Assembly: GCA_041651115.1 (NCBI GenBank) | Contig: JBAZJY010000001.1 | Location: 517,165-581,164 of the forward strand | DNA from: Candidatus Omnitrophota bacterium | GTDB taxonomy: Bacteria; Omnitrophota; Gorgyraeia; Gygaellales; Profunditerraquicolaceae | DNA: 64,000 bases | Direction: 5' to 3' | Part shown: positions 10,501-63,307 of the stretch, one piece after another | Layout: each line of letters starts with the position of its first letter | Numbering within the stretch: the stretch's first letter is position 1 | Made by a program: the position numbers and the translations under genes | Notes under the pieces: generated by a model | The model's database searches: none | Seen by the model: only the letters and a program-made list of their open reading frames with translations | Told to the model about the DNA's origin: nothing

Positions 10501-11910
10501 ATTCAGCAGATCAAAATGCCGCATCTTCTTATAAAGCGTGGTGCGGTTGATGCCTAATTTCTTCGCGGCTTCATTCCTATTCCACTTCACCGAATCTAAG
10601 GCCCTGACCAACAGGTCTCTCTCCGGCTCTTTTAAGGCATCTTTAAGCTTACAGCTGTCATATTCATCACCACCGCTATGCGGCATAGGATGCTTATGTT
10701 TAAGGCCATACAGGGGTTCCGGCAGGTCGTGCGGATTGATTACCGGGCCCTTGGTCAAAATAACCGCCCGTTCAATCACATTTTCCAGTTCCCGGACATT
10801 GCCCGGCCAATTATACTGCGTCAAAAGAGCAAGCGCCTCGCTTGATACGCACTCAATCTTGCGCTTGGTATTCTTAGAAAACTTCTTTATAAAATCCTCA
10901 AGCAGGAGCGGAATATCTTCCTTGCGTTCGCGTAAAGGCGGAACATCAACAGAGATAATATTCAGGCGATAATAAAGGTCTTTACGGAACTTACCCTGGG
11001 CGATCAGATCCATAAGACTCTGGTTCGTAGAGGCAATTACCCGCACATCCACCTTTATTGTCTTGGTATCTCCTACCCTCTCAAACTCCCCTTCCTGCAA
11101 AACCCGCAATAACTTGACCTGCAAGGCAGGCGAAAAGGCGTCAATTTCATCCAAAAATATCGTCCCGCCGTTAGCTAGCTCAAAACGGCCGATCCTATCC
11201 TTTATTGCCCCGGTAAACGCTCCCTTTACATGGCCGAACAATTCGCTCTCAAGCAGGGTCTCGGTGAGCGCGCCGCAGCTTACTTCCACAAACGGCTTAG
11301 CCTTCTCTATCTCATTACAATGATGAATAGCATGGGCGATCATGCGCTTACCTGTGCCGGTTTCTCCGTGGATAAGCACAGTTGCCCGCGTGCCGGACAC
11401 TGCCTCAATCAAAGAATAGATCTTCTGCATGCTCGGGCTTTTACCTACAATATTATGAAAATTTTCCCGGCAGGAATGCGAAAGTTGCTCTTTAAGTTTT
11501 ATGTTTTCTTCCGCGATATCGCGTTGCTTAAACAATCGCTCAATAACGATCTTTATTTCGTTATCCACAATCGGCTTGGCAATGTAATCGTAAGCGCCTT
11601 CTTTCATAATTTCTACGGCAGATTCTATGCTGGCTTGGCCGGTAATAAGTATAACCGGGATTTTAAGTTTGGCGGACTTGATGTGCTTTAATAACTGCAG
11701 GCCGTCCATATGCGGCATCTTGATGTCGCTAATCACCAGATCCACCGGACTTTCATGCAGCGCAGCCATGGCTTCCTTGCCGTTTGCAACAGTTTTCACG
11801 CTGTAGCCTGTATGGCTAAGCAATTCGCCAAGCGAATTCCTTACCAATGGCTCATCATCAACTATCAGGATATGAAACCTGCCGTTAGAATCAGAATTAC
11901 GCATTTTCAA
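10492..11910 (-). CDS. sigma-54-dependent Fis-family response regulator (NtrC family; PrsR-like)
   Basis: Receiver domain (ILIVDDEP), AAA+ domain with GETGTGK Walker A and GAFTGA sigma-54 contact motif, C-terminal Fis HTH. Confidence 0.85.
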   Translation of the reverse strand: MKMRNSDSNGRFHILIVDDEPLVRNSLGELLSHTGYSVKTVANGKEAMAALHESPVDLVISDIKMPHMDGLQLLKHIKSAKLKIPVILITGQASIESAVEIMKEGAYDYIAKPIVDNEIKIVIERLFKQRDIAEENIKLKEQLSHSCRENFHNIVGKSPSMQKIYSLIEAVSGTRATVLIHGETGTGKRMIAHAIHHCNEIEKAKPFVEVSCGALTETLLESELFGHVKGAFTGAIKDRIGRFELANGGTIFLDEIDAFSPALQVKLLRVLQEGEFERVGDTKTIKVDVRVIASTNQSLMDLIAQGKFRKDLYYRLNIISVDVPPLRERKEDIPLLLEDFIKKFSKNTKRKIECVSSEALALLTQYNWPGNVRELENVIERAVILTKGPVINPHDLPEPLYGLKHKHPMPHSGGDEYDSCKLKDALKEPERDLLVRALDSVKWNRNEAAKKLGINRTTLYKKMRHFDLLNKK

Positions 11911-13063
11911 AATAAGTTTTGGGGATTATGACCGTGAATTTCGTGCCCTTGCCTAAAGTGCTTTGCACGTTGATGTGGCTTCCGTACCTGCTTATGATCT
12001 CCTGGCAGATCGCCAGGCCAAGGCCAGTGCCTTTATCCGCCTTCTTGGTAGTAAAGAACGGCTCAAAGATGCGGTCTAATAATTCAGGGGATATGCCTGC
12101 GCCGGTGTCTTGAAAGCTAACCTCAAGAGACATGCCATTCAGGCGAGTAGAAACCTCAAGCTGGCCGCCGGAAGGCATGGCATCCAGCGCGTTCTTTATG
12201 AGATTGGTGAACACATGCGCCAACCCCATATCCAATATCCGGGGCAAGCCATGGCCGTATTCTTTTTTTATCGTAATATTCGCATTTAATTTTGTGGAAA
12301 GCGCGCCTAAAGAATCATCAAGCAACTGATGCGGATCAACGCATAAGCGTTTATCCGCGCTTGAAGCATCGGAGTGACGGGAAAATTGCAGCAGCGATTT
12401 TGTAATGCCGGCAATACGGCTTAATCCGGATTTTACTTCCAAAACATATTCCTTTGCTCCGGGGTTGCCTTCTATCTTTTCCAACAGCATATTCGTATAT
12501 CTGATGATGCCATCAAGCGGGCTGTTTATTTCATGGATAGCTCCGGCAGCAAGCTTTCCCACGGAAGCATATTTTTCCTTTGATTCAATGTAATTGTTAA
12601 GGCTGTCGGCAACGCAAGCCGCGTATTTGGCGATCGCGTAGGCGACTTTCAGGTCTTCTTCCGAAAACGGCTTTCCGTTGGATTTATCCGTGAGATTGAT
12701 TAAACCAAGCAGGCCGCAGCGCCCGGAAACCGGTATGGAAATAAAGGAATTCGTGTGGTAATGCTTGTAGCCGTTGCGCCGAAAACGCGAATCCGCATTG
12801 ATATTTTTTACGAGCACCGGCTTCTGCATCCCCGCGATCCTGCCGGAAACCCCCTCGCCTACTTTCTGCCTTAAGCCATAGAGGAAAAGGTTGTTTGAAT
12901 TATGGTATTCGTTTAAAACCAGCTCTTTGCGCTGGGAGTCAAATAAAAAAAGCGACCCGCCATCTGCGCCGGTCGCCGACATTATTTCTTTAAGCGCGCT
13001 GCTTAACTGATTTTTCTGGACAGTATTAATTTCGTTCTGGCAGCGGATACTTGTATTGTTCAT
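11897..13063 (-). CDS. sensor histidine kinase with N-terminal GAF domain, no TM segment
   Basis: H-box HEINSPL, N/G boxes (GTGLGLAI); start overlaps the upstream gene. Confidence 0.8.
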   Translation of the reverse strand: MNNTSIRCQNEINTVQKNQLSSALKEIMSATGADGGSLFLFDSQRKELVLNEYHNSNNLFLYGLRQKVGEGVSGRIAGMQKPVLVKNINADSRFRRNGYKHYHTNSFISIPVSGRCGLLGLINLTDKSNGKPFSEEDLKVAYAIAKYAACVADSLNNYIESKEKYASVGKLAAGAIHEINSPLDGIIRYTNMLLEKIEGNPGAKEYVLEVKSGLSRIAGITKSLLQFSRHSDASSADKRLCVDPHQLLDDSLGALSTKLNANITIKKEYGHGLPRILDMGLAHVFTNLIKNALDAMPSGGQLEVSTRLNGMSLEVSFQDTGAGISPELLDRIFEPFFTTKKADKGTGLGLAICQEIISRYGSHINVQSTLGKGTKFTVIIPKTYFENA

Positions 13064-50426: not shown

Positions 50427-51983
50427 TCATAAACTATTATTCAAATACGCCGGATGCGGTTTGCCGATGATCTGATAAAAATTACGCGCGTGCATGCGGA
50501 ATAATTTATCAAAATCTCCGTTGGGGTCTTCGCCATACCACCAGAACCAGTCGCTTCCTTCCAAAACGCGCATTTGTTTCCACGCCAGCTTAATGTCAAT
50601 GCCGTCTGAACCTTCCTTCTCTATTCTTTCAAGTTCGGAGCGCGCTTCAGTCAGGCTTTCCCACGCGCGATTCTTATGCGGGTTGCCGATCCATTTGCCG
50701 AACTCGCCGTAAATCCATGAGCCCGGGGCAAGGCGCTTGATCTCATGCTCTGCCGGATGTGATTTTAAATATTCCTGCGGCGTGGTTGCGGTAACGAATT
50801 TGGCGCTGGATAAATTTTCATAAAGCAGCTCAAGAAAATCATGGCCGTCATTGGCATAATATTCCCATGCGTTCTCACCGTCCATTGCGATCGTAACAAG
50901 AATATCCTGGTTCTTAAAAGCGGCTGCGATATTTTCCAAATGCTTCATAAAATCGGCAACCGCGGACTTTGAATCCCAGCGATGATAAACAAAACCGATA
51001 AGGTCGGAAAGATTGCGGTCGCGGAAAATAATGCTTAGCTGTCCCTCTTTGCCCTTTAAGAGGTGCGGCTTATATAAAGCGCGGGTATCCCGCTTTTTAA
51101 GGCCCAATGACCTGAATAATATGCCTTCATCGGCAACAATCCATTTAATCCCGGATTCCATAATGAACGGTAATATGTGCCGGCTTACCGCTTCTTCCGA
51201 AGGCCACATGCCCGCCGGCGCCATACCGAAACGCGCCTTGTAGAATTCCACTGCTTCGTCAATTTGCGCTTTGGCATCCTGCGGCCAGCTGAATTGGACC
51301 TGCGGCAGCGTGGTTTTGATATTTGCCTCTTTGGCAGTCTTGGTATTATAAAGCAGCGGCAGTATTGGATGGTAATACGGGCTGATAGAGGCCTCAATCT
51401 GGCCCTTTGCGATGAATTCCTTATAAACGGGGATAACGCCGGAAAGGATCTCTAACTGGGTATTTAAGACAATGGTCTTATCTTCTTCATTGTAGAACCG
51501 GCCTTTGCCAACGATCTTTTTTAATGCCGGGATATTGCGGCGGAAATACGGGTCAAACCAGGCAAGGTTAAACCAAACCTGCAGGTCAAGGAAGTCTTGA
51601 GTGGTAAAATTCTTGCTGGCCTTATGTTTTAGATAAAGCTCGTAGTAACGCGGATGTACTGCAATACACTTTTCAGGGTTAATGCTGAAGAAACGGCTAA
51701 GTAGGAATTCTTTATCCTGTTGGTCAAGCTTATCCGCCGGCTTAAGGGTAAGCTCAAAAAATTTGTCCTTTACTTCGCCGCTAACGTAATCTTCTACCTG
51801 TTCTACCAGCGAAGGCACAAGATTGAATGTCTGGCGCACTGCCGGATACTTATCCAGCATTTTAACCATATCAAGGTAGTCTTTGATGCCGTGCAGCCGC
51901 ACCCAAGGCACATCAGTCTCCTTGGTAAGGAGATTCTTGTAGTACGGCTGATGCATGTGGAAGATAAAGGCGAGGTATAGCAT
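50427..51983 (-). CDS. glycoside hydrolase family 57 enzyme (alpha-glucan branching/amylase-type)
   Basis: N-terminal FIFHMHQPYY GH57 signature; 518 aa as in GH57 branching enzymes. Confidence 0.85.
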   Translation of the reverse strand: MLYLAFIFHMHQPYYKNLLTKETDVPWVRLHGIKDYLDMVKMLDKYPAVRQTFNLVPSLVEQVEDYVSGEVKDKFFELTLKPADKLDQQDKEFLLSRFFSINPEKCIAVHPRYYELYLKHKASKNFTTQDFLDLQVWFNLAWFDPYFRRNIPALKKIVGKGRFYNEEDKTIVLNTQLEILSGVIPVYKEFIAKGQIEASISPYYHPILPLLYNTKTAKEANIKTTLPQVQFSWPQDAKAQIDEAVEFYKARFGMAPAGMWPSEEAVSRHILPFIMESGIKWIVADEGILFRSLGLKKRDTRALYKPHLLKGKEGQLSIIFRDRNLSDLIGFVYHRWDSKSAVADFMKHLENIAAAFKNQDILVTIAMDGENAWEYYANDGHDFLELLYENLSSAKFVTATTPQEYLKSHPAEHEIKRLAPGSWIYGEFGKWIGNPHKNRAWESLTEARSELERIEKEGSDGIDIKLAWKQMRVLEGSDWFWWYGEDPNGDFDKLFRMHARNFYQIIGKPHPAYLNNSL

Positions 51984-52018
51984 TAGGTGATAGGTGTTAG
52001 GTAATAGGTGTTAGGTTT
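51984..52018. repeat. array of five tandem TAGGTNN heptamers abutting the GH57 start codon
   Basis: taggtga taggtgt taggtaa taggtgt taggttt; an inverted copy lies at 52404-52431 and a direct copy at 63273-63307. Confidence 0.85.
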
Positions 52019-52031
52019 AAAGTGATGGATA

Positions 52032-52403
52032 TTAAGCATATTTCCCGAGTGAATTCTTAAGACCGTTTAACATTTTACCACATTCATTATATTCTTGCAC
52101 AAAATAATTATATTTATCTTCCGCAACATATTGCTTCTTAAAGGCAATTGATATATGATGTCTGGTTTCCTGAATTTCTCCTTGCGCCCGGTTAATACCC
52201 TCTAAATAAATATTTAAATGTTTATTATTCCAACCTTCGGCAAGATTCGCAGGGGCTGAATTAGAAGATCTTCTTAATTGGGAGCCTAACTCATACTTTT
52301 CAAAATCAGGAAATTCCTGTGTTAAAGCAGAAACCTCCAAATGTAGCTTACATAATTTTTGATAAACGTCTAAATCCTCAAAGCTATTTATTTGATTTTT
52401 CAT
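52032..52403 (-). CDS. four-helix-bundle protein (TIGR02436; 23S rRNA intervening-sequence-type protein)
   Basis: DLDVYQKLCKL...SAPANLAEG signature of the family; 123 aa. Confidence 0.75.
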   Translation of the reverse strand: MKNQINSFEDLDVYQKLCKLHLEVSALTQEFPDFEKYELGSQLRRSSNSAPANLAEGWNNKHLNIYLEGINRAQGEIQETRHHISIAFKKQYVAEDKYNYFVQEYNECGKMLNGLKNSLGKYA

Positions 52404-52431
52404 ACCTGGTATCTGACACCTAGCACCTAAA
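52404..52431. repeat. inverted heptamer array (ACCTNNN x4) immediately upstream of the four-helix-bundle gene
   Basis: acctggt atctgac acctagc acctaaa is the reverse complement of TAGGTNN units. Confidence 0.7.
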
Positions 52432-52485: not shown

Positions 52486-53925
52486 TTAGAATGTTACCTT
52501 CATTGAACCGATGACTTCAGTTGCTGTGTTGTCATTCCTATTGGAAAGGGCATTACCCGCCCAATAGACACCGGTCAAAAGGGAGAACTGAACATCTTCG
52601 GTATAATCATAGGTAGCCGTGACATCCAATTCTTGACCTAATCCGCCCTTTTTGGTAAAAACGAGGTTCTGTCCAGGTCTTGCAACACTCGTAGCTACTA
52701 GACCGTTGGTAGACCTCTTTGCCAGCCAATAACCATAATATTCGCCTTTTAAGGTGATATCTTCCATAGGCTTCATTGAACCTTTGATACCAGCTATATG
52801 CTGATTGGTCTGGTTCCATAACACATTATGGATATTGCCGAACGTCTGGTTCTCATACATCGGGTCCCATCCGCGGCGATGGCCTGCGTTGGTATCATAG
52901 TTGTCGCTGTCACCGCTAAAATAGGCATACAAAGCAGTCAAAGAAGGTGTATATTTGACTTTTTTAAAATCATAGGTCAACGACGTTTCCAAAGCCCAAG
53001 CTTTAAGGGCTACGGTCGGCTGAGCCGCAGTATTGGTGTTATATCTACCAAACTGATATGCAACTTCCAACTGATACATAAGATTCTCGATGGGCGTAGT
53101 AGATACGCGGGCACCGATAACATCTGTACGAGTAGGCTTATTAATGTTAGTATTCGCTTTTCTGTCAACGTTTCTTTCAAACCAGTATGCCTCTACCTTG
53201 GTGTTCTTGGTGAGATCATAACCGGCATTCACGCCATAAAGATTGGTGTCATCGTAGCTGTTGGTAACTGCCTCTGCGATCTTTGCGCCGATGATGTCAA
53301 TCACCAAAGGATCATAATTAAGGGTAGCGCGAATAGCATCAAACGACTTACGGGCGCTCAGGTCTGCGTTTAACCTGTTAGCGCTGGTGGTACCCACCAC
53401 GTTACTGAACGGGCTGGCTGAACTAACCGCGTTATTAGTATCAGGATCGCCGACTATCATTTCGTTTCCAAAGTGCAGTTCCTGGCGACCAACTGTCATT
53501 GTCAGAGGAGAATACAAAAACTCTTTCAAAGTCACATAAGCCAAGTCAAGATCAATGTCTGTGTTGACATTTCTGTCTGAACTGGCTGCGACTGAACCCG
53601 TATTCTCTGTTTCGCTACCCCAATATCTTTCGTTGAGTATCCTTACGGTGGTAGAAACATTGTCTGTAAGATCAGCATCAACTCTTACGCGGGCAATGCT
53701 AGCAAGAAAAGTATCCGGATACGTTCCTGTTGTACCGGTTCCGGCGGCCTTGCTATTATTAAGCTCAAGCTGGCGAGCAACACCAAGCACGGTGATGTCT
53801 CCGCTTACTTTAACATTTTGAACTTCTGCGTATGCGGTAAATGTGAGGCCTACCACAAACGCCAAAGCCAAAACTAATATCAAGCGTTTACTCATTTGTG
53901 TAACCTCCTTTAAAATTCCAAACAA
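52486..53925 (-). CDS. outer-membrane beta-barrel porin-like protein
   Basis: Signal peptide, alternating amphipathic beta-strands, C-terminal ...KVTF aromatic terminus. Confidence 0.55.
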   Translation of the reverse strand: MFGILKEVTQMSKRLILVLALAFVVGLTFTAYAEVQNVKVSGDITVLGVARQLELNNSKAAGTGTTGTYPDTFLASIARVRVDADLTDNVSTTVRILNERYWGSETENTGSVAASSDRNVNTDIDLDLAYVTLKEFLYSPLTMTVGRQELHFGNEMIVGDPDTNNAVSSASPFSNVVGTTSANRLNADLSARKSFDAIRATLNYDPLVIDIIGAKIAEAVTNSYDDTNLYGVNAGYDLTKNTKVEAYWFERNVDRKANTNINKPTRTDVIGARVSTTPIENLMYQLEVAYQFGRYNTNTAAQPTVALKAWALETSLTYDFKKVKYTPSLTALYAYFSGDSDNYDTNAGHRRGWDPMYENQTFGNIHNVLWNQTNQHIAGIKGSMKPMEDITLKGEYYGYWLAKRSTNGLVATSVARPGQNLVFTKKGGLGQELDVTATYDYTEDVQFSLLTGVYWAGNALSNRNDNTATEVIGSMKVTF

Positions 53926-54206
53926 TATATTTAACTAGGTATTTAAGTGTTGCCTAGATTATTTCTATCTATTTTTATATCACTGGATTTGTGTATGACT
54001 TCGGGCTATTTTTATGTTCATCGCCTCCCTTCTGCCCAACATTAAAGCCATATCCAGTGGTATAACCGATTTTCTCCCTTTTAACATATAAACCTTTACT
54101 TGTCAAGGGTTTTTTAATAAAACCAGGGTTTATATTATGTAACTCCTTTAAATTCAGATATTTAGGAGATTTGTTTCTTTTTTTATTCAAGAGCACTGCT
54201 AGCTGC

Positions 54207-54233
54207 TAGGGACGTCCTTTCAGGTACCACCCT
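54207..54233. repeat. REP-like element copy (CTAGGGACGTCCTTTCAGGTACCACCCT) overlapping the AbiEii stop codon
   Basis: Shares the GGGACGTCC...GGTACCACCCT core with 56435-56460, 57148-57173 and 60295-60320. Confidence 0.75.
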
Positions 54234-54891
54234 GCAAGGCCGCTTTTATCTTCATCTCCAAAATAGCGAATTTTTTTGCAGTGTAATACCTACGCTCATC
54301 TTCCTCCAATAAAGAACCCAGCTTTACGGAGTAATCTTTTGCAGTAAAAGACGTTACCCCTCTTAACAGTCTTTCCAAAACCTCGGCAGGCTCATCCAGC
54401 GCTGCGCCTTTTTTCAAAAGAAACTCAATGTCAAAGGCGTCACGGATCTCTTTTCTGTCTAAAAGCGCCCGGATTTTTGCCGTCAGCATATCCTTTAAAG
54501 ACAGGGCATTCAAAATAACCTGCACGTTTGAATACTTGCTGTATGCGATGGACCGTTCTGATTTTACGGCCTTAAGCTCTTTTCTGATCTCCAGCTTCAG
54601 GGCCCGCGGAAAATTTTTTGACCGGATCTCAAAAAGTATTGTATAAAATTTATCCGTTGCGTCTTTTACCGTATAATAGCGGCTAAGGCAATCCTTTAGA
54701 TTGCGGAATAATTTTTGGGCATCGGTTTTTTTATTGAGCCAAAAATCCAAATCTACGGAAAACCGGTTTAAACCGTAACAGAGCCTAAGCATTGTGCCTC
54801 CGCCAAAAACAAGCCCGCTCAATAATTTTGCGCTGTTTAGCCGATCCAAAACCTCTAATTCAAATTGTTCCTGTTTTATGAGATCCCGCAT
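54220..54891 (-). CDS. AbiEii/DUF1814-family nucleotidyltransferase toxin
   Basis: LVFGGGTMLRLCYGLNRFSVDLDF NTase motif characteristic of AbiEii. Confidence 0.7.
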   Translation of the reverse strand: MRDLIKQEQFELEVLDRLNSAKLLSGLVFGGGTMLRLCYGLNRFSVDLDFWLNKKTDAQKLFRNLKDCLSRYYTVKDATDKFYTILFEIRSKNFPRALKLEIRKELKAVKSERSIAYSKYSNVQVILNALSLKDMLTAKIRALLDRKEIRDAFDIEFLLKKGAALDEPAEVLERLLRGVTSFTAKDYSVKLGSLLEEDERRYYTAKKFAILEMKIKAALQGGT

Positions 54892-55466
54892 ATTTTCCCC
54901 GCTATCTGCCTTGTTTTAAGTGGGTATGCTTTTATTATTTTTTTTAACCTCTGCATATCCAACCTTTCAATATTCAAAGATGCGAAGTCCAATTTATATT
55001 TGCCGAAAGAAAAAAGATAAACGGCATCCATAAAAGCTTTTTCTTTTGTGGCGATAAAAATATTGTCTTTTCTGATAAAATCAAAATAGACTGTTTTTTT
55101 AACTTTGTGATAGTTGAATATTACTCCCTTTATTTCAAAACGCTGGGAGCGTTTTAGGGAAATACTTTCAAAAAAATTCCGCGGAGACTGGGTTGTAACT
55201 TCATAAAACGATAAAGCAGTCATTAAAGATATGTATGAAGGCACCTGCAGGTAATTGGAAAGCGCGAAAAAATCTTCCCGCCTAAAGTTGCCCCAATTCT
55301 GATCCAAGACGTAAAAATTATTTTTAAGCCTTATAAAAACGCCGGATTTTACGTAGCGGCTGGCAAGGACCCGGGCTGATTCAAGGCTAATGCCGGCAAT
55401 ATTTGCCAGATTGGCTATTGTAAAGTAGGGCTTTTCCTGTAACCGGCGAAGCTGCGCGTATTTCAT
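54876..55466 (-). CDS. AbiEi-family antitoxin/transcriptional regulator
   Basis: N-terminal AbiEi_4-like wHTH (FTIANLANIAGISLESARVLASRYVKSGVF); overlaps the abiEii start. Confidence 0.65.
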   Translation of the reverse strand: MKYAQLRRLQEKPYFTIANLANIAGISLESARVLASRYVKSGVFIRLKNNFYVLDQNWGNFRREDFFALSNYLQVPSYISLMTALSFYEVTTQSPRNFFESISLKRSQRFEIKGVIFNYHKVKKTVYFDFIRKDNIFIATKEKAFMDAVYLFSFGKYKLDFASLNIERLDMQRLKKIIKAYPLKTRQIAGKICGIS

Positions 55467-55558
55467 TTGTTTTCCCCCAAAGCCTGATATTTACTAAGTA
55501 TACATAATTAACATCTACGATAAGTATATATCCCTAGTAATCCTTTGTCAAGCTTATT

Positions 55559-55789
55559 TTATTCAACCACGCCAAGGGTTTCGCCGACACTTACAGTGTC
55601 GCCTTCGCTAAAGATGACCTCGGAAAGCGTGCCTGAACAGGGGCTGGGCAGGTTAAAGGTGGCCTTATCAGTGGCAAGCTCAACTAAGTCGTCTTTCTCA
55701 TTTACCTTATCTCCGACTTTATAATACCAATAAGAAACCGTCGCTTTGGTGATGCCTTCGCCTAATTCCGGTAAGATGACTTTTGTCAT
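55559..55789 (-). CDS. stand-alone lipoyl/biotinyl attachment-domain protein
   Basis: 76 aa with the LVELATDKA lipoyl-lysine motif; overlaps lipB by 4 nt. Confidence 0.6.
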   Translation of the reverse strand: MTKVILPELGEGITKATVSYWYYKVGDKVNEKDDLVELATDKATFNLPSPCSGTLSEVIFSEGDTVSVGETLGVVE

Positions 55790-56433
55790 ATTAAAGCCTC
55801 CTCCTTTTCTTTCAAGAATACATTTGTGAATTTCGCGGTTAATCCGGCTTTCAGCGCATTGACCTCAACCTGCCTGCCTAAAGCCGTTTCCAAAGAAACC
55901 ATTTCTATGTCCATGCCGCAAGGCCGGATCAAAGAATAGTTTTTCAGGTCATCATTCTTTATGTTTATGCTCATGCCGTGGAAAGTTATCCAGTTCCTTA
56001 CGCAGATGCCGATAGAAGCGATTTTTTTGCTGCCGAACCAAACACCGGTAAGCCCAAGCCTTCTTGTTGCGGTAATTCCGAAATCGGATAAAAAATCAAT
56101 GGCAGTTTCTTCAAGCTGTCTTAAAAAAAAGTGGATGTCTTTCTTAAAATAATTCAGGTTGAATACCGGATAAATAACAAGTTGGCCCGGGCCGTGATAA
56201 GTAACATCCCCGCCTCTTTCAACTTCAATAAGCTGGATGCCTTTTGCCTGTAATTCGTCTTTACCGATAAGGATATTTTTACGGCTTGCTTGCCTGCCTA
56301 AGGTGATCACCGGATTATGGAAACAGGTTATCAGGCAGGAATTATATGCACCTTTTTTAACGTCGGAAAAAACCAGCCTTTGGCATTCCAAAGCTTCGTT
56401 ATAATCTATTAAACCTAAATCAACCGTTCTCAT
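55786..56433 (-). CDS. lipB: octanoyltransferase (lipoyl(octanoyl) transferase)
   Basis: LipB-like fold with HGPGQLVIYP and conserved Cys/Lys region; 215 aa. Confidence 0.8.
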   Translation of the reverse strand: MRTVDLGLIDYNEALECQRLVFSDVKKGAYNSCLITCFHNPVITLGRQASRKNILIGKDELQAKGIQLIEVERGGDVTYHGPGQLVIYPVFNLNYFKKDIHFFLRQLEETAIDFLSDFGITATRRLGLTGVWFGSKKIASIGICVRNWITFHGMSINIKNDDLKNYSLIRPCGMDIEMVSLETALGRQVEVNALKAGLTAKFTNVFLKEKEEALI

Positions 56434-56434
56434 T

Positions 56435-56460
56435 GGGGACGTCCTTTAAAGTACCACCCT
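56435..56460. repeat. REP-like 26-mer (GGGGACGTCCTTTAAAGTACCACCCT) downstream flank of the RAYT
   Basis: Inverted relative to 57148-57173; overlaps the RAYT stop codon and abuts the lipB start. Confidence 0.8.
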
Positions 56461-57049
56461 ATCTGATCTTAAACACTTTATCTACAATGAGGTCGTAAGG
56501 CCTGTCCTCGGATACATATTTGATATAGGCCTCTTGCCTCTTCTCTTGTATATGGGCCAATCCCGAATAGAGCAAATTAGGCATAATTATTATATCATCG
56601 GTAGAGCCGTAAGCATAGTAAGAAAAACTGCTCCATTTATATCTTGATAAATTATCAACTATTCCTGCACGCAGAGGATTCCGTTCAATATACCTTGCGC
56701 ATTCTAAAAGATAAGCATCATTATTTATGGAGCGGCTCTTATACCGGTTCTGAAAGATAAACCCGACAGAACCATAACGCTTGCGGAATGTAACCGCATA
56801 TACCTGCAGAATTGATTGCATAAATTTTGGTAGATCCGATGCTTTAATAGCTTTAAGCAGCAGGTGTATGTGGTTTGGCATAATGCAGTAATTGGTTATC
56901 TTGACTTCGTAGGAGTGCTGGTATTGCTTAAGTATTGCCAAAAAGTATTCATAGTCATGCTTGCACCTAAACAGGCGCCTACGGTCAATACCCCTTGTAA
57001 CTATATGATAATACCCTCCGTCTATCAAGGCTCTACTTACTCTTGGCAT
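56459..57049 (-). mobile_element. IS200-like Y1 HUH transposase, REP-associated (RAYT) type
   Basis: HUH motif PNHIHLLL and catalytic-Tyr helix ARYIERNPLRAG (Y-x3-NP); 196 aa; flanked by inverted REP-like 26-mers. Confidence 0.75.
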
Positions 57050-57147
57050 ATAGATTCCTCCTTCTAATTAAATAGACGAAAGAAAAAGGAAAATCTAACA
57101 AAGAAATTTTTAGTTGGTTAAAATGACGGGATTAGAAAACTCTGAAA

Positions 57148-57173
57148 AGGGTGGTACCTGGAAGGACGTCCCC
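57148..57173. repeat. REP-like 26-mer (AGGGTGGTACCTGGAAGGACGTCCCC) upstream flank of the RAYT
   Basis: Reverse-complement orientation of the 56435 copy; ends 2 nt before the lpdA stop codon. Confidence 0.8.
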
Positions 57174-57175
57174 TG

Positions 57176-58468
57176 CTATTTGAGCGCTTCGTGGATGCCT
57201 TCGGACAGGCTGGGGTGGGCAAAGATCGTATCGCGGATCTGCGATACGGATAATTTATTGGAAACTGCCAGGCCGGCAATCGCAATGAGCTCTGCCGCGG
57301 AAGGCCCGAGTATTGCGCAGCCAAGCACTACTCCGGATTTTGCCTCTGAAATAAATTTAATGAAACCGTCTGCTTCATCCATAATCCTTGCCATGCCGGA
57401 AGCCATAAAATCAAATTTATGCAGCTTCACTTCAATACCCTTGGCAATTGCTTCTTCTTCACTCATTCCCACGCTTGCTGCCTGGGGATCGGTAAAAATG
57501 CAGCTGGGCACGACCTGGTTATCGCACTTTTTTGGCTTGGCAGAATCTGCGATGTTCTCTGCCGCAATAACTCCTTGGTAAGCGGCATAATGCGCAAGCA
57601 TTAACTTTCCTGTGCAGTCTCCGGCGGCGTAAATATTAGGAATATTTGTCCTAAGATATTCATCAACGACGATCTTTCCTTTTTCAGTTACTACACCGAT
57701 AGATTCTAAGCCTAACCCTTGCGTATCCACTGCCCTGCCCACGGCAAGCAGCACCAAATCATAATTATTAAAATCCGCGGGCTGCGCCTCGGCATTAGTG
57801 CTTACCTTGATGCCTTTCTTTTTAAAAGATTGCTCAAGCTTGCGGCTAATGTCTTTATCCATTCCCGGCAAAAGCTGGGGCATTTTTTCAATCACTGTAA
57901 CCGTTATGCCAAGGCCGGCAAATAAGCCGGCGAATTCACAGCCAATCACCCCGCCGCCAATAATAAGAAGTGTCTTAGGAAGTTCCCTTAACTGCAGGAT
58001 CTCGTCGCTGGAAATAACTTTCTTACCATCAAGCTTGATCTGGCGTAATTCTGCCGGCGTTGAGCCACAGGCAATAAGAATAAATTTCGCGGACAGCTCT
58101 TTGCCGCCTGCTTTTACGGAATTCGCGGAAATGAGTTTTGCTTCGGCGTTGATGAAATCCACGCCCTTAAGCATAAATGCCATGCCTGCTGAAAGCTGCT
58201 GAATAATTTTATCTTTTCTGGATTGGATTTCGGGAAAATTTATTGCGGGGTTTGTAACTTCTATACCGAAGGTTTTTGATTTTTTTGCCAGGGAGTAAAC
58301 TTTGGCTGACTGGATAAGCGCCTTGGTGGGGATACAGCCGCGGTTAAGGCAGGTGCCGCCGATTTGGCTGTTCTCAATTACGGCAACTTTCAGGCCGGAG
58401 TCTTTGGCTTTTAAAGCCGCGTTAAACCCTGCCCATCCACTGCCGATGATGATCAAATCGTAATTCAT
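57176..58468 (-). CDS. lpdA: dihydrolipoyl dehydrogenase
   Basis: FAD motif GSGWAG, redox-active disulfide GGTCLNRGCIPTK, NAD motif GGGVIGCE, C-terminal HAHP-like region. Confidence 0.8.
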   Translation of the reverse strand: MNYDLIIIGSGWAGFNAALKAKDSGLKVAVIENSQIGGTCLNRGCIPTKALIQSAKVYSLAKKSKTFGIEVTNPAINFPEIQSRKDKIIQQLSAGMAFMLKGVDFINAEAKLISANSVKAGGKELSAKFILIACGSTPAELRQIKLDGKKVISSDEILQLRELPKTLLIIGGGVIGCEFAGLFAGLGITVTVIEKMPQLLPGMDKDISRKLEQSFKKKGIKVSTNAEAQPADFNNYDLVLLAVGRAVDTQGLGLESIGVVTEKGKIVVDEYLRTNIPNIYAAGDCTGKLMLAHYAAYQGVIAAENIADSAKPKKCDNQVVPSCIFTDPQAASVGMSEEEAIAKGIEVKLHKFDFMASGMARIMDEADGFIKFISEAKSGVVLGCAILGPSAAELIAIAGLAVSNKLSVSQIRDTIFAHPSLSEGIHEALK

Positions 58469-59382
58469 TTGATCTCTTTATACTGTTCCTTTAATTTAGC
58501 TGCGCAAGCCTGCAGGCTGCTAAGTTCCTCTGTATTCAATTCCAATTCAATTACTTTTTCAATGCCGCTCTTGCCTAATTTGCAGGGTGAACCTATGCAA
58601 ACGTCTTTAATGCCGTATTCGCCGTTTAAGTAAGCGGAAACCCCGACTACGCGGCTATGGCCCCTGGCAATGATACCGGCCAGCTCTGCGATCGCTGCCG
58701 AAGGCGCGAAATAAGCGCTGCCTGAACCAAGTAAAGAAACGATCTCTTTGCCCCGGTCAAAAGTACGAGCGGCCAATTCACGGGCCTTATCACTACCCAC
58801 GATCTTATCAAGGCTTGAGCCTTTTACTTTTGTAAAGCGAGTTAAAGGCATCATACCTTCGCCATGGCTGCCGATCACACAAGGCTCTATCTCGGTTACC
58901 GGAATATTGAGTTCATTGCTAATGAGATTAGCAAAGCGCGAAGCATCCAGTGTAATACCCATGCCAAATACTTTACTTGGGGCAAAACCCGTAACCTGCA
59001 AGGCAAGCCGGGTCATTAAATCAAGGGGATTGGTGACGATGATTACGATTGCCTGCGGACTAAGCGATTTTATATTTAAGCAAACGTCTTTTAGGATCTG
59101 CGCGTTCTTATTCAGCAGGTCCTCGCGCGTCATTCCAGGCTTGCGCGCCAAGCCTGCGGTAACGATCACGATATCAGAACCGCTGATCCCATTAATATCA
59201 TCTGTGCCGGTAATGTTAAAGTCGGACTTTAACAATAGCCGGCTATCGTCCATATCAAAGGCCTTACCTTGCGCAATACCCTTGGCAATATCCACCAAAA
59301 AAATATCGCCTAACCCATCCTGGGCAAGGCGCATTGCAGTTAAACCGCCGACATTACCAGCTCCGATAACGGATATTTTCAT
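58465..59382 (-). CDS. mdh: malate dehydrogenase (LDH-like MDH)
   Basis: [13 protein letters not shown] Rossmann motif, catalytic TNPLD and GSHGE regions. Confidence 0.8.
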
Positions 59383-60443
59383 TTTAATTTTGCAATAATT
59401 GCGTCTGCCATTTCCGCAGTACCCACGCTTGAGGGGTCGTCGCGACGCGGCTTTAAGTCATAAGTCACGGACTTGCCTTCGGCAATCACCTGCTTGACTG
59501 CGGTTTCCAGCCGATTAGCAGCTTCTTTTTCCCCGATATGCTCAAGCATCAATACTCCGGATAAGATCATTGCCGTAGGATTGACTTTATTCATACCGGC
59601 ATACTTTGGCGCTGAACCATGCACTGCCTCAAATACTGCCATTTCATTGCCGATATTGGCGCCGGGAGCAATGCCTAATCCGCCGATCAGGCCGGCGCAA
59701 AGATCGGAAATAATATCGCCGTAAAGGTTAGGCAGTACCAGGACATCGTAATTCTCCGGACGCTGCACTAATTGCATTGACATATTATCCACGATCGCGT
59801 CTTCAAAGGCAACCCTTCCGGTATATTCTTGAGCAACTTCCTTTGCGACTTTCAGAAATAGCCCGTCGGTAAATTTCATAATGTTTGCTTTATGCACGGC
59901 AGTGACTTTTTTACGGTTATGCTTTAAGGCATATTCAAAGGCAAACTTAACGATGCGTTCGGAAGCAGTCCTTGAGATTGGTTTGATGGAAATGCCGGAA
60001 TCCGGACGGATCTTTTTTTTATTGTATTTGGCGATCTCTTGGATCAAGTGCTCGGTTTCCGGCTTGCCCTCTTCAAATTCAATACCGGCGTAAAGGTCTT
60101 CGCTGTTCTCCCTGATAATCACCAGGTCAATATTCTTGTAGTGGCTCTTTACTCCTGCGTATGATTTAGCCGGCCTGACGCAAGCATATAAGTCTAATGC
60201 CTGCCGGATCGCCACGTTAACCGAACGGAAGCCACTGCCGACAGGCGTCGTTATCGGGCCTTTTAGCGCGACTTTTGTCTTTTTTACGCTCTCAAGGGTG
60301 GTACCTGGAAGGACGTCCCCGTATTTTTCGAGCACCTCTTCCCATTCAATCTTCACGCCGGTAGCGTCAATGCAGCGCTTTGCTGCCAACGCCACTTCAG
60401 GGCCAATGCCGTCTCCCGGTATTAAAGTGATCTTATAAGCCAT
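59379..60443 (-). CDS. isocitrate/isopropylmalate dehydrogenase-family enzyme (Icd-like)
   Basis: [45 protein letters not shown] motifs; most similar in pattern to prokaryotic IDH. Confidence 0.75.
60295..60320. repeat. REP-like 26-mer identical to the RAYT flank, located inside the icd/leuB-like CDS in frame
   Basis: AGGGTGGTACCTGGAAGGACGTCCCC, 26/26 identity with 57148-57173; encodes GDVLPGTTL. Confidence 0.8.
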
Positions 60444-60444
60444 T

Positions 60445-60945
60445 TTAGACTTTCAGTTGTCCGTGCTTTTTAAAATAATGCACTACCCCGCCTTCCTGCA
60501 ATAGTGCCTGCATGAACGGCGGCAAAGGCTTGACCTTTAATTCTATTCCTTTGGTGATATTTCTCAATATGCCGTTATCAAGATCGATCTCCAGCTCATC
60601 ATTCTCGGCAATCTTATCAGTATCCACTTCTACCAGCGGCAAGCCGATGTTAAAGGCATTGCGGTAAAAAATGCGGGCAAAGCTTTTTGCCAGCACTGCC
60701 ACAATGCCGGATTCCTTGATTACCAGCGGCGCCTGCTCGCGGGAAGAGCCCATGCCAAAGTTAGAGCCGGCAACAAGCAACGATCTTCCGGCAATGATCT
60801 TTTTGGGGAACTCCGGGTCAATATCTTCCATTATGTGCTTTGCCAGTTCCTTCATATCCGTAATGGAGAACTTATAACGCCCGGAGATAATGAAATCCGT
60901 ATTAATGTTATCGCCTAATCTGATTGACTTGCCCGCTATCTTCAT
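60445..60945 (-). CDS. leuD: 3-isopropylmalate dehydratase / aconitase-family small subunit
   Basis: 166 aa archaeal-type LeuD with [14 protein letters not shown] motif. Confidence 0.75.
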
Positions 60946-60954
60946 CGCTTTAAG

Positions 60955-62001
60955 TTATAACTGTTTGAACTCGTCGGTATTTTTAACTTTTGACATTGCC
61001 ACGTCTAAAGTTATCTGCTTCTGGTTATAAAGATCCTTTAATGACTTATCCATTGTCTTCATTCCGTATTGGCTGCCGGTTTGCATGATCGTGGGGATCT
61101 GCTCAATCTCCTGCTCGCGGATAAGGTTGCGGATGGCAGGCGTGCCGATCATAATTTCCGTAGCCAAGACCCGGCCTTGGCCTGACGCGTGCGGCAGGAG
61201 CAGCTGCGATACAACCCCCTGAAGGCAGTCTGCAAGCTGAAGCTTAACCTGCTGCTGCTGGTGCGAAGGGAATACGTCAATGATCCTTTCAATAGTCTGC
61301 GGCGCGTCCGGAGTGTGCAGCGTGGCAAGCACCAAGTGGCCGGTTTCCGCCGCGGTAAGCGTAGTGGAAATAGTCTCTAAGTCACGCATTTCACCGACTA
61401 CAATAACGTTAGGGTCCTGGCGCAGCGCGTGCCTCAACGCTTCGGCAAATGAGCGCGTATCGGCGTAAACTTCTCTTTGCTTGATAATACTCTTTTTATT
61501 CTTATGCACGAATTCAATCGGGTCTTCAATGGAAACCATCAAACATTCCCGTTCGTTGTTTATCTGGTCTATCATTGCCGCCAAAGTCGTGGTCTTACCC
61601 ATACCTGTAGGGCCGGTAACCAATACTAATCCGTTGCCGCGGCGGGCAAGCTCCGTGATTATCGGCGGCAAGTTAAGGTCTTTTGCCGTAGGCACGTTAA
61701 GCGGCACGCGCCTGAATGCCGCTTCCACAGCGCCTTTCTGCATATGGGTATTCACCCTGAATCTGTCCATACCGGGAAGCGCAAGAGAAAAATCCAGTTC
61801 CAGGTCGCGCTCAAATATCTCTTTCTGCGGATTAGTCAGGACGCTGTAAATAATGCGTTTTAGATCCAATTTTGTCATTGGGGGAAAAGCAGTGCGCATC
61901 AGCTTTCCGTCAATGCGCAAAATAGGAGGTTCGTTTTCCGTAAGGTGCAGATCCGAGGCTTTTTTGTCAATGCACATCGTCAATAACTCGCTTAGTTCCA
62001 T
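60955..62001 (-). CDS. pilT: type IV pilus retraction ATPase PilT
   Basis: ASDLHL, Walker A GPTGMGKTTT, Asp box, His box; 348 aa. Confidence 0.85.
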   Translation of the reverse strand: MELSELLTMCIDKKASDLHLTENEPPILRIDGKLMRTAFPPMTKLDLKRIIYSVLTNPQKEIFERDLELDFSLALPGMDRFRVNTHMQKGAVEAAFRRVPLNVPTAKDLNLPPIITELARRGNGLVLVTGPTGMGKTTTLAAMIDQINNERECLMVSIEDPIEFVHKNKKSIIKQREVYADTRSFAEALRHALRQDPNVIVVGEMRDLETISTTLTAAETGHLVLATLHTPDAPQTIERIIDVFPSHQQQQVKLQLADCLQGVVSQLLLPHASGQGRVLATEIMIGTPAIRNLIREQEIEQIPTIMQTGSQYGMKTMDKSLKDLYNQKQITLDVAMSKVKNTDEFKQL

Positions 62002-62016
62002 ACTACCTCCTTAAGG

Positions 62017-63270
62017 TTATAGATATTTCCTCGGGTCGGTAATTTTTCCTTCAATGCTGGAAGCAGCCACAGTTGCCGGAGACGCCAGATAAATAAAAGC
62101 ATTGGGATTACCCATCCTGCCCTTAAAATTCCTGTTGGCGGTAGAGATCACGTTTTCTCCGTCGGCAGGAATGCCGTTATGCGTGCCGACGCATGGGCCG
62201 CAGCCGGGCGCGACAATTACCGCGCCTGACCTGATAAATGTATCAACGATACCCGCCTCAAGCGCCGCAAGATAGATCGGCCTTGATGCCGGGGCAATAA
62301 TAAATCTTACCGAGGGATGCACTTTCCTGCCCTTCATAATGGAGGCGGCAACCTTAAGGTCGCTTAGCCTGCCGTTAGTGCAGGTGCCCAGGTACGCTTC
62401 GTTTATCTTAACGTCTTTTAAGCCGGAAGCCGCGGCAGTATTGTCTACGGTATGCGGCTTGGCAACCTGCGGCTTAAGCCACGAAATATCGTATTCAATC
62501 ACCCGTTCATATTTTGCGTCTTTATCCGCGGATACGGCAGCGATCTTTTTTTGCGGCCGGATACTTTCTTTGATCCATGCAACGGTAATTTTATCTACCG
62601 GCATAAAACCGGCTTTCGCGCCCATCTCAACTGCCATATTACACATTGTAAAACGGCCGTCCATATTCATCCTGTCAATTACCGGGCCGCAAAATTCAAC
62701 CGCCTTATATGTGGCGCCGTCTGCCTTCAAGTCTCCGATTATGTAAAGGATAATATCTTTGGCAAAAATCCCTTTAGGCACTTTTCCCTTAATTACTATC
62801 TTAAAGGTTTCCGGGACCTTAAACCAGTTTTTCCCCGAGGCAAGCGCGATCGCCAGGTCTGTTGAGCCAACGCCGGTGGAAAAAACACCCATTGCCCCGT
62901 ATGTACAAGTGTGCGAATCTGCCCCGAGCACCAGGTCGCCGGGCATGATCTCGCCGGATTCAGGGATCACCTGATGGCAAACCCCGCAGCCAATGTCAAA
63001 AAGCCCTGTCCTGTAATCCTGCGAAAATACCCGCATTTTCTTATGGACTTTAGAAACCCCTTCACTTGGCGAAGGCGCGCTGTGGTCAATGACCATGCAG
63101 AACCTTGTCTTAAAGCCTTCCAGGCCCATTTCCTTGACGCGGTCAATGATGATCGAAGAAGTGCCGTCCTGGCCAAACGCAAAATCAATGTTACATACGG
63201 CAAAATCTCCGGCCCTTAAATCCCTCCCGCAGTGATTGCTGAGTATTTTTTCGGCTATTGTTTTACCCAT
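62017..63270 (-). CDS. leuC: 3-isopropylmalate dehydratase / aconitase-family large subunit
   Basis: 417 aa archaeal-type LeuC; Fe-S ligand motifs (GCGVCH, CTNGR). Confidence 0.8.
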   Translation of the reverse strand: MGKTIAEKILSNHCGRDLRAGDFAVCNIDFAFGQDGTSSIIIDRVKEMGLEGFKTRFCMVIDHSAPSPSEGVSKVHKKMRVFSQDYRTGLFDIGCGVCHQVIPESGEIMPGDLVLGADSHTCTYGAMGVFSTGVGSTDLAIALASGKNWFKVPETFKIVIKGKVPKGIFAKDIILYIIGDLKADGATYKAVEFCGPVIDRMNMDGRFTMCNMAVEMGAKAGFMPVDKITVAWIKESIRPQKKIAAVSADKDAKYERVIEYDISWLKPQVAKPHTVDNTAAASGLKDVKINEAYLGTCTNGRLSDLKVAASIMKGRKVHPSVRFIIAPASRPIYLAALEAGIVDTFIRSGAVIVAPGCGPCVGTHNGIPADGENVISTANRNFKGRMGNPNAFIYLASPATVAASSIEGKITDPRKYL

Positions 63271-63272
63271 AT

Positions 63273-63307
63273 TAGGTGTTAGGTCTTAGGTGCTGGGTGT
63301 TAGGTGA
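63273..63307. repeat. array of five tandem TAGGTNN heptamers abutting the leuC start codon
   Basis: taggtgt taggtct taggtgc tgggtgt taggtga, same orientation as 51984-52018. Confidence 0.85.

Follow-up and report, generated by a model that had tools for sequence, protein, structure and literature searches.

Rickettsia palindromic elements (RPE) were reportedly first described by Ogata and colleagues in 2000. Opitutus terrae and the Omnitrophota, to which the genome studied here belongs, are both members of the PVC group. [quoted passage not shown] 2013, PMC3733652), and in these published cases an inserted REP lengthens the protein, either as a single unit or as a dimer encoding 20-30 aa (PMC3733652). 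The multiplication of single REP units is poorly understood, and the literature offers insertions of REP pairs and in-frame insertions into genes. A different source of sequence change is short-patch ectopic gene conversion or template-switch mutagenesis, in which a similar donor close by serves as the template for several clustered base changes; to our knowledge, no experiment ties either process to a REP-associated tyrosine transposase (RAYT).

At the locus described here, comparison of sequences indicates that a single REP unit took the place of an equally long stretch of an essential-enzyme gene beside its own transposase, and the arrangement is found clean in three assemblies. The window, that is, the whole 64-kb stretch of Omnitrophota DNA that was analysed, contains four REP copies, a RAYT gene and an icd gene with a complete REP unit, hereafter the patch, as part of its coding sequence (Table 1).

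Table 1. Features of the RAYT and icd region, numbered from the first base of the window.
Feature	Position	Strand	Remarks
Fourth REP copy	54208..54233	-	2 mismatches; overlaps the last 4 codons and the TGA of the AbiEii ORF
REP-RAYT-REP cassette, 739 bp	56435..57173	-	exactly at the lpdA stop/lipB start junction
Second RAYT-flanking REP	56435..56460	-	3 mismatches; inverted relative to the 57148 copy
RAYT gene, 196 aa	56459..57049	-	PF01797 4.6e-19; NF047646 81.7 bits (cut-off 80)
RAYT-proximal 'master' REP	57147..57173	+	2 nt past the lpdA stop; ~98 nt upstream of the RAYT start
icd, isocitrate/isopropylmalate dehydrogenase family (NAD-type)	59379..60443	-	354 aa; orthologues 359-361 aa
Complete REP unit in icd	60294..60320	-	codons 42-50; 27/27 identical to the RAYT-upstream copy
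18-nt (6-codon) deletion junction	60332..60333	-	between Val37 and Leu38, four codons upstream of the patch

The 27-mer AAGGGTGGTACCTGGAAGGACGTCCCC occurs twice without mismatch on the plus strand, as the RAYT-proximal copy and within icd, and the two diverged copies lie on the minus strand. A preliminary description of this DNA had reported that 26 of 26 bases in icd were identical to the upstream flank of the RAYT gene; the identity holds and is one base longer. Read as a repeat (AAGGGTGG...), the icd copy runs along the plus strand, in direct orientation relative to the RAYT-proximal copy. The octamer GGACGTCC is restricted to the four copies within the whole 64 kb. All four visible copies fall within 6.1 kb around the RAYT gene in the approximately 70 kb of this genome inspected (the window and 6.4 kb more), and the earlier term 'dispersed' therefore overstates their distribution. 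A MAFFT alignment of the four copies showed nothing conserved in their 40-nt flanks, and the best Smith-Waterman local alignments between the 60-nt flanks of the two identical copies gave p=0.34 and p=0.17 against shuffles. Homology thus stops at the repeat ends, which is the abrupt divergence that the preliminary description had expected of repeat-derived sequence; since no extended homology surrounds the copies, the alternative that it had considered, of icd pseudogene fragments, is ruled out for these four. An Rfam scan of positions 53900-60600 gave zero matches. At the far end of the cluster, the fourth REP copy provides the final four codons of the AbiEii toxin ORF (54220-54891), encoding QGGT, together with the TGA, which arises from that copy's own G-to-A difference from the master copy.

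The RAYT is a Y1/HUH transposase that passes the cut-off of the curated NCBI model NF047646 ('REP-associated tyrosine transposase'), with NHIHLL as its HUH motif and a candidate catalytic tyrosine in QNRYKS. Its flanking REPs (56435-56460 on the minus strand and 57148-57173 on the plus strand) are inverted and 88% complementary; the former shares bases with the RAYT stop codon, and 1 nt separates its end from the lipB ATG. At the lpd-lipB junction of relatives with the same gene order, the two genes abut (L051 and L052; contigs are referred to by L numbers) or another gene is found (L050). The cassette is thus missing from the orthologous junction in relatives, indicating a lineage-specific insertion. 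Only 1-2 nt separate its ends from the lpdA stop and the lipB ATG (56431-57178). The downstream REP puts a Shine-Dalgarno-like AAGGA 8 nt ahead of the lipB start, and the lipB N-terminus, MRTVDLGL, is shorter than and different from the MEFKVFDLGL of relatives, so the insertion may have remodelled the start of lipB.

This operon neighbourhood is a hotspot of accessory DNA, which in the window consists of the RAYT cassette and an AbiEi/AbiEii pair. The lpd-lipB slot of L050 contains a PDDEXK_3 gene (11502-11876), and L051 contains a different RAYT-like gene (11487-12381, 35% identity), which is flanked by inverted repeats of its own, AATTCAAGACGCTGTTGTTAA, in tandem upstream. A second short repeat family is present in the window as tandem heptamer-type repeats (TTAGGTG and ATAGGTG, with 14-nt spacing) at 51968-52030, 52413-52430 and 63257-63305; they are inverted on both sides of a 23S rRNA IVP/bAvd-like gene (52032-52403) and recur just upstream of the gene for the aconitase large subunit. 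A PilT-like T2SSE ATPase gene (60955-62001) lies between the genes for the large and small subunits of the aconitase family, an arrangement kept in all relatives examined (L050 to L052 and the P0002 contigs). The icd and mdh genes overlap by 4 nt (ATGA, 59379-59382), whereas relatives have a spacer of 49-172 nt, indicating that intergenic sequence was lost too in this lineage.

The pattern GGGTGGTAC-N5-AGGACGTCCC was scanned against 185,579 genomes (one per species) and the JGI metagenomes. Four matches were found in the species genomes, two of them in other Omnitrophota MAGs, and 43 metagenome contigs contained the pattern; the source genome is not one of the GTDB representatives, and its contig did not appear in either set of matches. 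On five contigs, L003 among them, a RAYT homologue begins 97-108 nt downstream of the REP, and on a sixth (L026) the REP lies 2 nt past the RAYT stop. The RAYTs of these six contigs are 63-79% identical to the window protein and the REP-RAYT geometry is the same as in the window; a further contig (L016) carries the REP together with a RAYT of 57% identity. The REP beside RAYT homologues in other genomes means that the pairing is older than the window lineage, and the repeat is a REP family with its own RAYT.

The unit consensus derived from 56 family copies is AAGGGTGGTACCTTGGAGGACGTCCCC, with a variable centre. Among family copies, the central CTGGA is confined to the window copies at 57148 and 60295. 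REPs of REP-RAYT systems are imperfect palindromes of 20-40 nt with a conserved head tetranucleotide of the GT[AG]G type; here GTGG is invariant at unit positions 6-9, a non-terminal location, and CGTC is also present, inside GACGTC. The REP is a weak interrupted palindrome composed of two mini-palindromes, GGTACC and GGACGTCC; folded as single-stranded DNA, it forms a hairpin of only about 8 bp, interrupted by internal loops (MFE -2.5 to -3.3 kcal/mol, z ~0 against shuffles), and this weak fold makes hairpin-dependent recognition by the RAYT uncertain. The repeat, 26-27 nt long, was found on two classes of contigs, one of 37-48% GC, to which the Omnitrophota MAG contigs belong, and one of 54-62% GC, which includes a contig of an Aminicenantales genome (L004), has at most three copies per 6 kb and comprises the RAYT-bearing L016. 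It is unusual for one REP to be conserved in hosts this far apart, and the REP-RAYT pair may thus have spread horizontally. On L025 (6695-6772), two inverted copies 30 nt apart form a REPIN- or BIME-like dimer, an arrangement that the visible part of the window genome does not show.

No icd carrying the REP was present among the pattern matches in species genomes and metagenomes, and approximately 50 other family copies included no convincing intragenic one by stop-to-stop ORFs, Pfam domains and GC3 phase. The pattern lies upstream of the Pfam domain on L004 and L019, and the remaining copies on GC-rich contigs are at gene borders according to the GC3-phase analysis. In a GH18 gene and a subtilase gene the pattern was found within or just after the Pfam domain; the centres are atypical and these are probably chance matches.

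The product of the window icd gene (MFA5156333.1) matches PF00180 across residues 4-349 (3.3e-103), i.e., a full-length Iso_dh domain, and among solved structures its best match is 6lky, an NAD-dependent IDH (1.8e-109); 119 full-length relatives with 76-85% identity were retrieved. On the coding strand the 27-mer reads GGG GAC GTC CTT CCA GGT ACC ACC CTT and encodes GDVLPGTTL, corresponding exactly to nine codons in frame, as previously proposed. The aligned segment in all 119 relatives is G-[DE]-[VIL]-L-P-x-x-[VT]-[LI], without a gap at the patch, and no gain of length at the patch was detected in alignments with the 119 orthologues or with solved structures. The first five residues agree with 110 (G), 48 (D), 26 (V), 119 (L) and 117 (P) of the 119 orthologues, and the last four with 3 (G), 3 (T), 40 (T) and 103 (L). 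At the two positions after LP, the orthologues have at least ten different residues (Q/E/K/D/S/P/G... and N/S/E/A/K/G/D/T..., respectively), and solved IDHs have DATL, DDTL or ESTL at the corresponding site. As every residue of GDVLPGTTL is found in some orthologue, the peptide is within the variation of the family, and the replacement of a conserved glutamate that had been postulated did not occur. The segment had also been described as proximal to the active site, which is unsupported: it lies 11 residues ahead of the conserved KGPxTTPxG...RSxN segment. By alignment it corresponds approximately to residues 79-89 of the E. coli IDH, which are not known to include a catalytic residue. An AlphaFold model of the product, built from an 18-sequence alignment, had a mean pLDDT of 46.6 and was unusable for placing the patch and the deletion. 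The codons of the patch are less preferred ones, ranking 16 among the 346 nine-codon windows of icd.

A 6-residue deletion close to the patch had been overlooked in the preliminary description. The deleted residues correspond to [I/L]-A-G-x-x-A, in which the first alanine and the glycine are conserved in 119/119 orthologues and the last alanine in 117/119, and the gap is also apparent in the comparison with solved IDH structures. Neither the patch nor the deletion is present in the 119 full-length homologues or in the 107 N-terminal fragments that allowed the segment to be placed, the latter from a search with the N-terminal 95 residues for closer relatives or partial alleles. The two changes are 12 nt apart in a gene of 1,065 nt, a closeness with a chance of roughly 2-5%, and the proximity of two changes unique to this gene suggests, without proving, that they were produced by a single event.

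The best explanation, with a probability of about 0.6, is the insertion of a cassette followed by templated copying of the RAYT-proximal REP into a look-alike site in icd. A REP-RAYT-REP cassette would have entered between lpdA and lipB in the lineage of this strain, and later the full unit of the RAYT-proximal REP, 3,147 nt off and in direct orientation, would have been copied into icd, where it would have replaced 27 native bases in register. The most likely donor is the copy at 57147-57173, and the patch covers the whole unit as defined by the 56 family copies. The target could have been a natural look-alike, because coding for GDVLP forces GGN GAY GTN CTN CCN; the native motif DNA would already have been 50-60% identical to the REP, and some relatives have the GACGTC core. 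In L050, for instance, the icd site is GGTGACGTCTTACCTGG, with GACGTC intact; GGTGACGTCTTACCTGGAGATGTTTTA is a native-like icd site from L050. With the nearby copy as template, the process could have been gene conversion over a short patch, template switching or some form of templated or break repair, perhaps set off by RAYT nicking at a pseudo-REP, and the 18-nt deletion 12 nt away may represent a scar or collateral damage of the same event. The allele would have been kept because the REP in this frame encodes a peptide inside the natural variation of the family, and the enzyme presumably remains active. We know of no REP or RAYT mechanism that gives an equal-length replacement. Moreover, sites compatible with the encoded peptide are roughly estimated at about one per proteome, yet this one is 3 kb from the RAYT gene, a coincidence that by rough estimate is well under 1% and counts against templated copying as the best explanation. 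The 3' end of lpdA, which encodes EALK before the stop, was considered as an extended donor of the LEKY codons of icd and rejected; LEKY fits the orthologues better and the alignment was non-significant.

A version in which the RAYT itself drove the event is improbable. The transposase would have recognised a pseudo-site at the GDVLP codons, with their GACGTC core, and exchanged strands with the flanking REP, so that the full unit was written over the native sequence and the 18-nt deletion was left as a scar. If true, the locus would have preserved in nature a case of RAYT-driven 'homing' in which single REP units are copied over look-alike sites, a spread mode so far undescribed for REPs.

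An insertion mediated by the RAYT, adding nine codons at the native motif and followed by deletions, including the 18-nt one, that restored the length, is likewise unlikely. The patch is exactly one REP unit that ends at the conserved terminal bases of the unit, an active-looking RAYT is 3 kb away, a deletion unique to this gene lies within 12 nt, and published intragenic REPs are insertions (PMC3733652). However, patch and deletion are still separated by the native LEKY codons, and the insertion would therefore have to be followed by at least two precise in-frame deletions. In addition, the mobile unit that has been studied is a REP pair (REPIN), while here a single unit is found with no inverted partner nearby.

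The opposite direction of transfer had also been put forward, namely that the REP family was seeded from the icd segment and that the copies flanking the RAYT are gene-derived. The in-frame translation of the REP agrees strikingly with the Icd motif, and the RAYT gene and icd share an operon neighbourhood. Within the patch, the window sequence is as near to its orthologues (56.5%) as these are to one another (59.9%), and with this ordinary divergence the icd alignment by itself reveals no scar. Nevertheless, the orthologues in L005 (the nearest, with 85% protein identity), L050, L051 and L052 share only 14-17 of the 27 bases at a site of the same length, and no REP-like sequence within 6 substitutions was found in the 4-17 kb of these loci. 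The REP flanks RAYT homologues at unrelated loci in genomes whose icd lacks it, such as that after truA in L003. The RAYT of L003 is the closest full-length-comparable relative (78.6% identity), and its upstream REP is 25/26 identical to the icd patch. This match to the REP of another species is not due to chance, which indicates that the 27 bases are not native to icd; moreover, an identity of 27/27 could not have outlasted the divergence of the RAYTs if the gene had been the source. Many copies on contigs of 56-62% GC have CTTGG or CTCGG as the centre, which would correspond to Gln or Arg in place of the motif Pro. On these sequence comparisons the transfer went from the REP family to icd, where native codons were replaced in register, in accordance with the earlier suggestion that the repeat overwrote native codons, and seeding from the gene is highly improbable.

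Coincidence, convergence or a chimeric join, according to which the 27 bases are native icd sequence or an assembly error, can be practically discarded: the peptide is typical of the family and the divergence of the site is ordinary, but about 1.2 million synonymous encodings exist for the same peptide, 100 dinucleotide-preserving shuffles gave an expectation of 0.00 matches to the 27-mer, the reading frame is intact, and the MAG and two other assemblies have the identical sequence. An ENA contig (ERZ27247363, k141_1877232) is equal to the window over 14,622 nt with no difference, and two Logan contigs from run SRR8542065 are 100% identical to it, one spanning the RAYT region and the other covering the first 152 codons of icd in 2,143 identical nt, with the patch as well as the deletion. 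The final k-mers of the assemblers (141 in the k141-named ENA contig, 31 for Logan) exceed the 27 nt of the repeat. The 27-mer in icd is not an assembler artefact, as three assemblies agree.

The presence of REPs inside genes as insertions was already known; the equal-length substitution is an unusual variant of that phenomenon. Although it is a single instance, seen in sequence only, it indicates that a selfish repeat can come to encode a conserved motif while the protein alignment bears no visible scar. It also carries a warning for annotation, since repeat masking and repeat-based calling of breakpoints can hit intact core genes.

Like the 'REP-decorated' proteins (PMC3733652), the icd gene contains a REP in frame, translated and inside a known coding gene. 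For such proteins, genes disabled by a REP were presumably purged, so that only tolerated sites are visible. In contrast to them, the icd unit takes the place of nine codons, adds no residues and mimics a conserved motif, and the icd product is 6 residues shorter rather than longer. The locus also resembles the REP-RAYT systems or REPtrons (Nunvar et al. 2010, PMC2817692; Bertels and Rainey 2011, PMC3116915) in having a single-copy Y1/HUH gene with flanking inverted repeats and in the conservation of the REP-RAYT pairing across related genomes (PMC2817692, PMC3116915). It differs from REPtrons in that its REP is a weak interrupted palindrome with few visible copies, clustered around the RAYT, and in that its cassette gives the impression of a recent arrival at the site instead of a long-standing resident. 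With short-patch conversion it shares the unchanged length and boundaries located inside pre-existing similarity, whereas the donor is a mobile-element repeat without flanking homology and the prior similarity was only ~55-63%. The locus suggests that templated copying into similar sequence, besides transposition, can move REPs.
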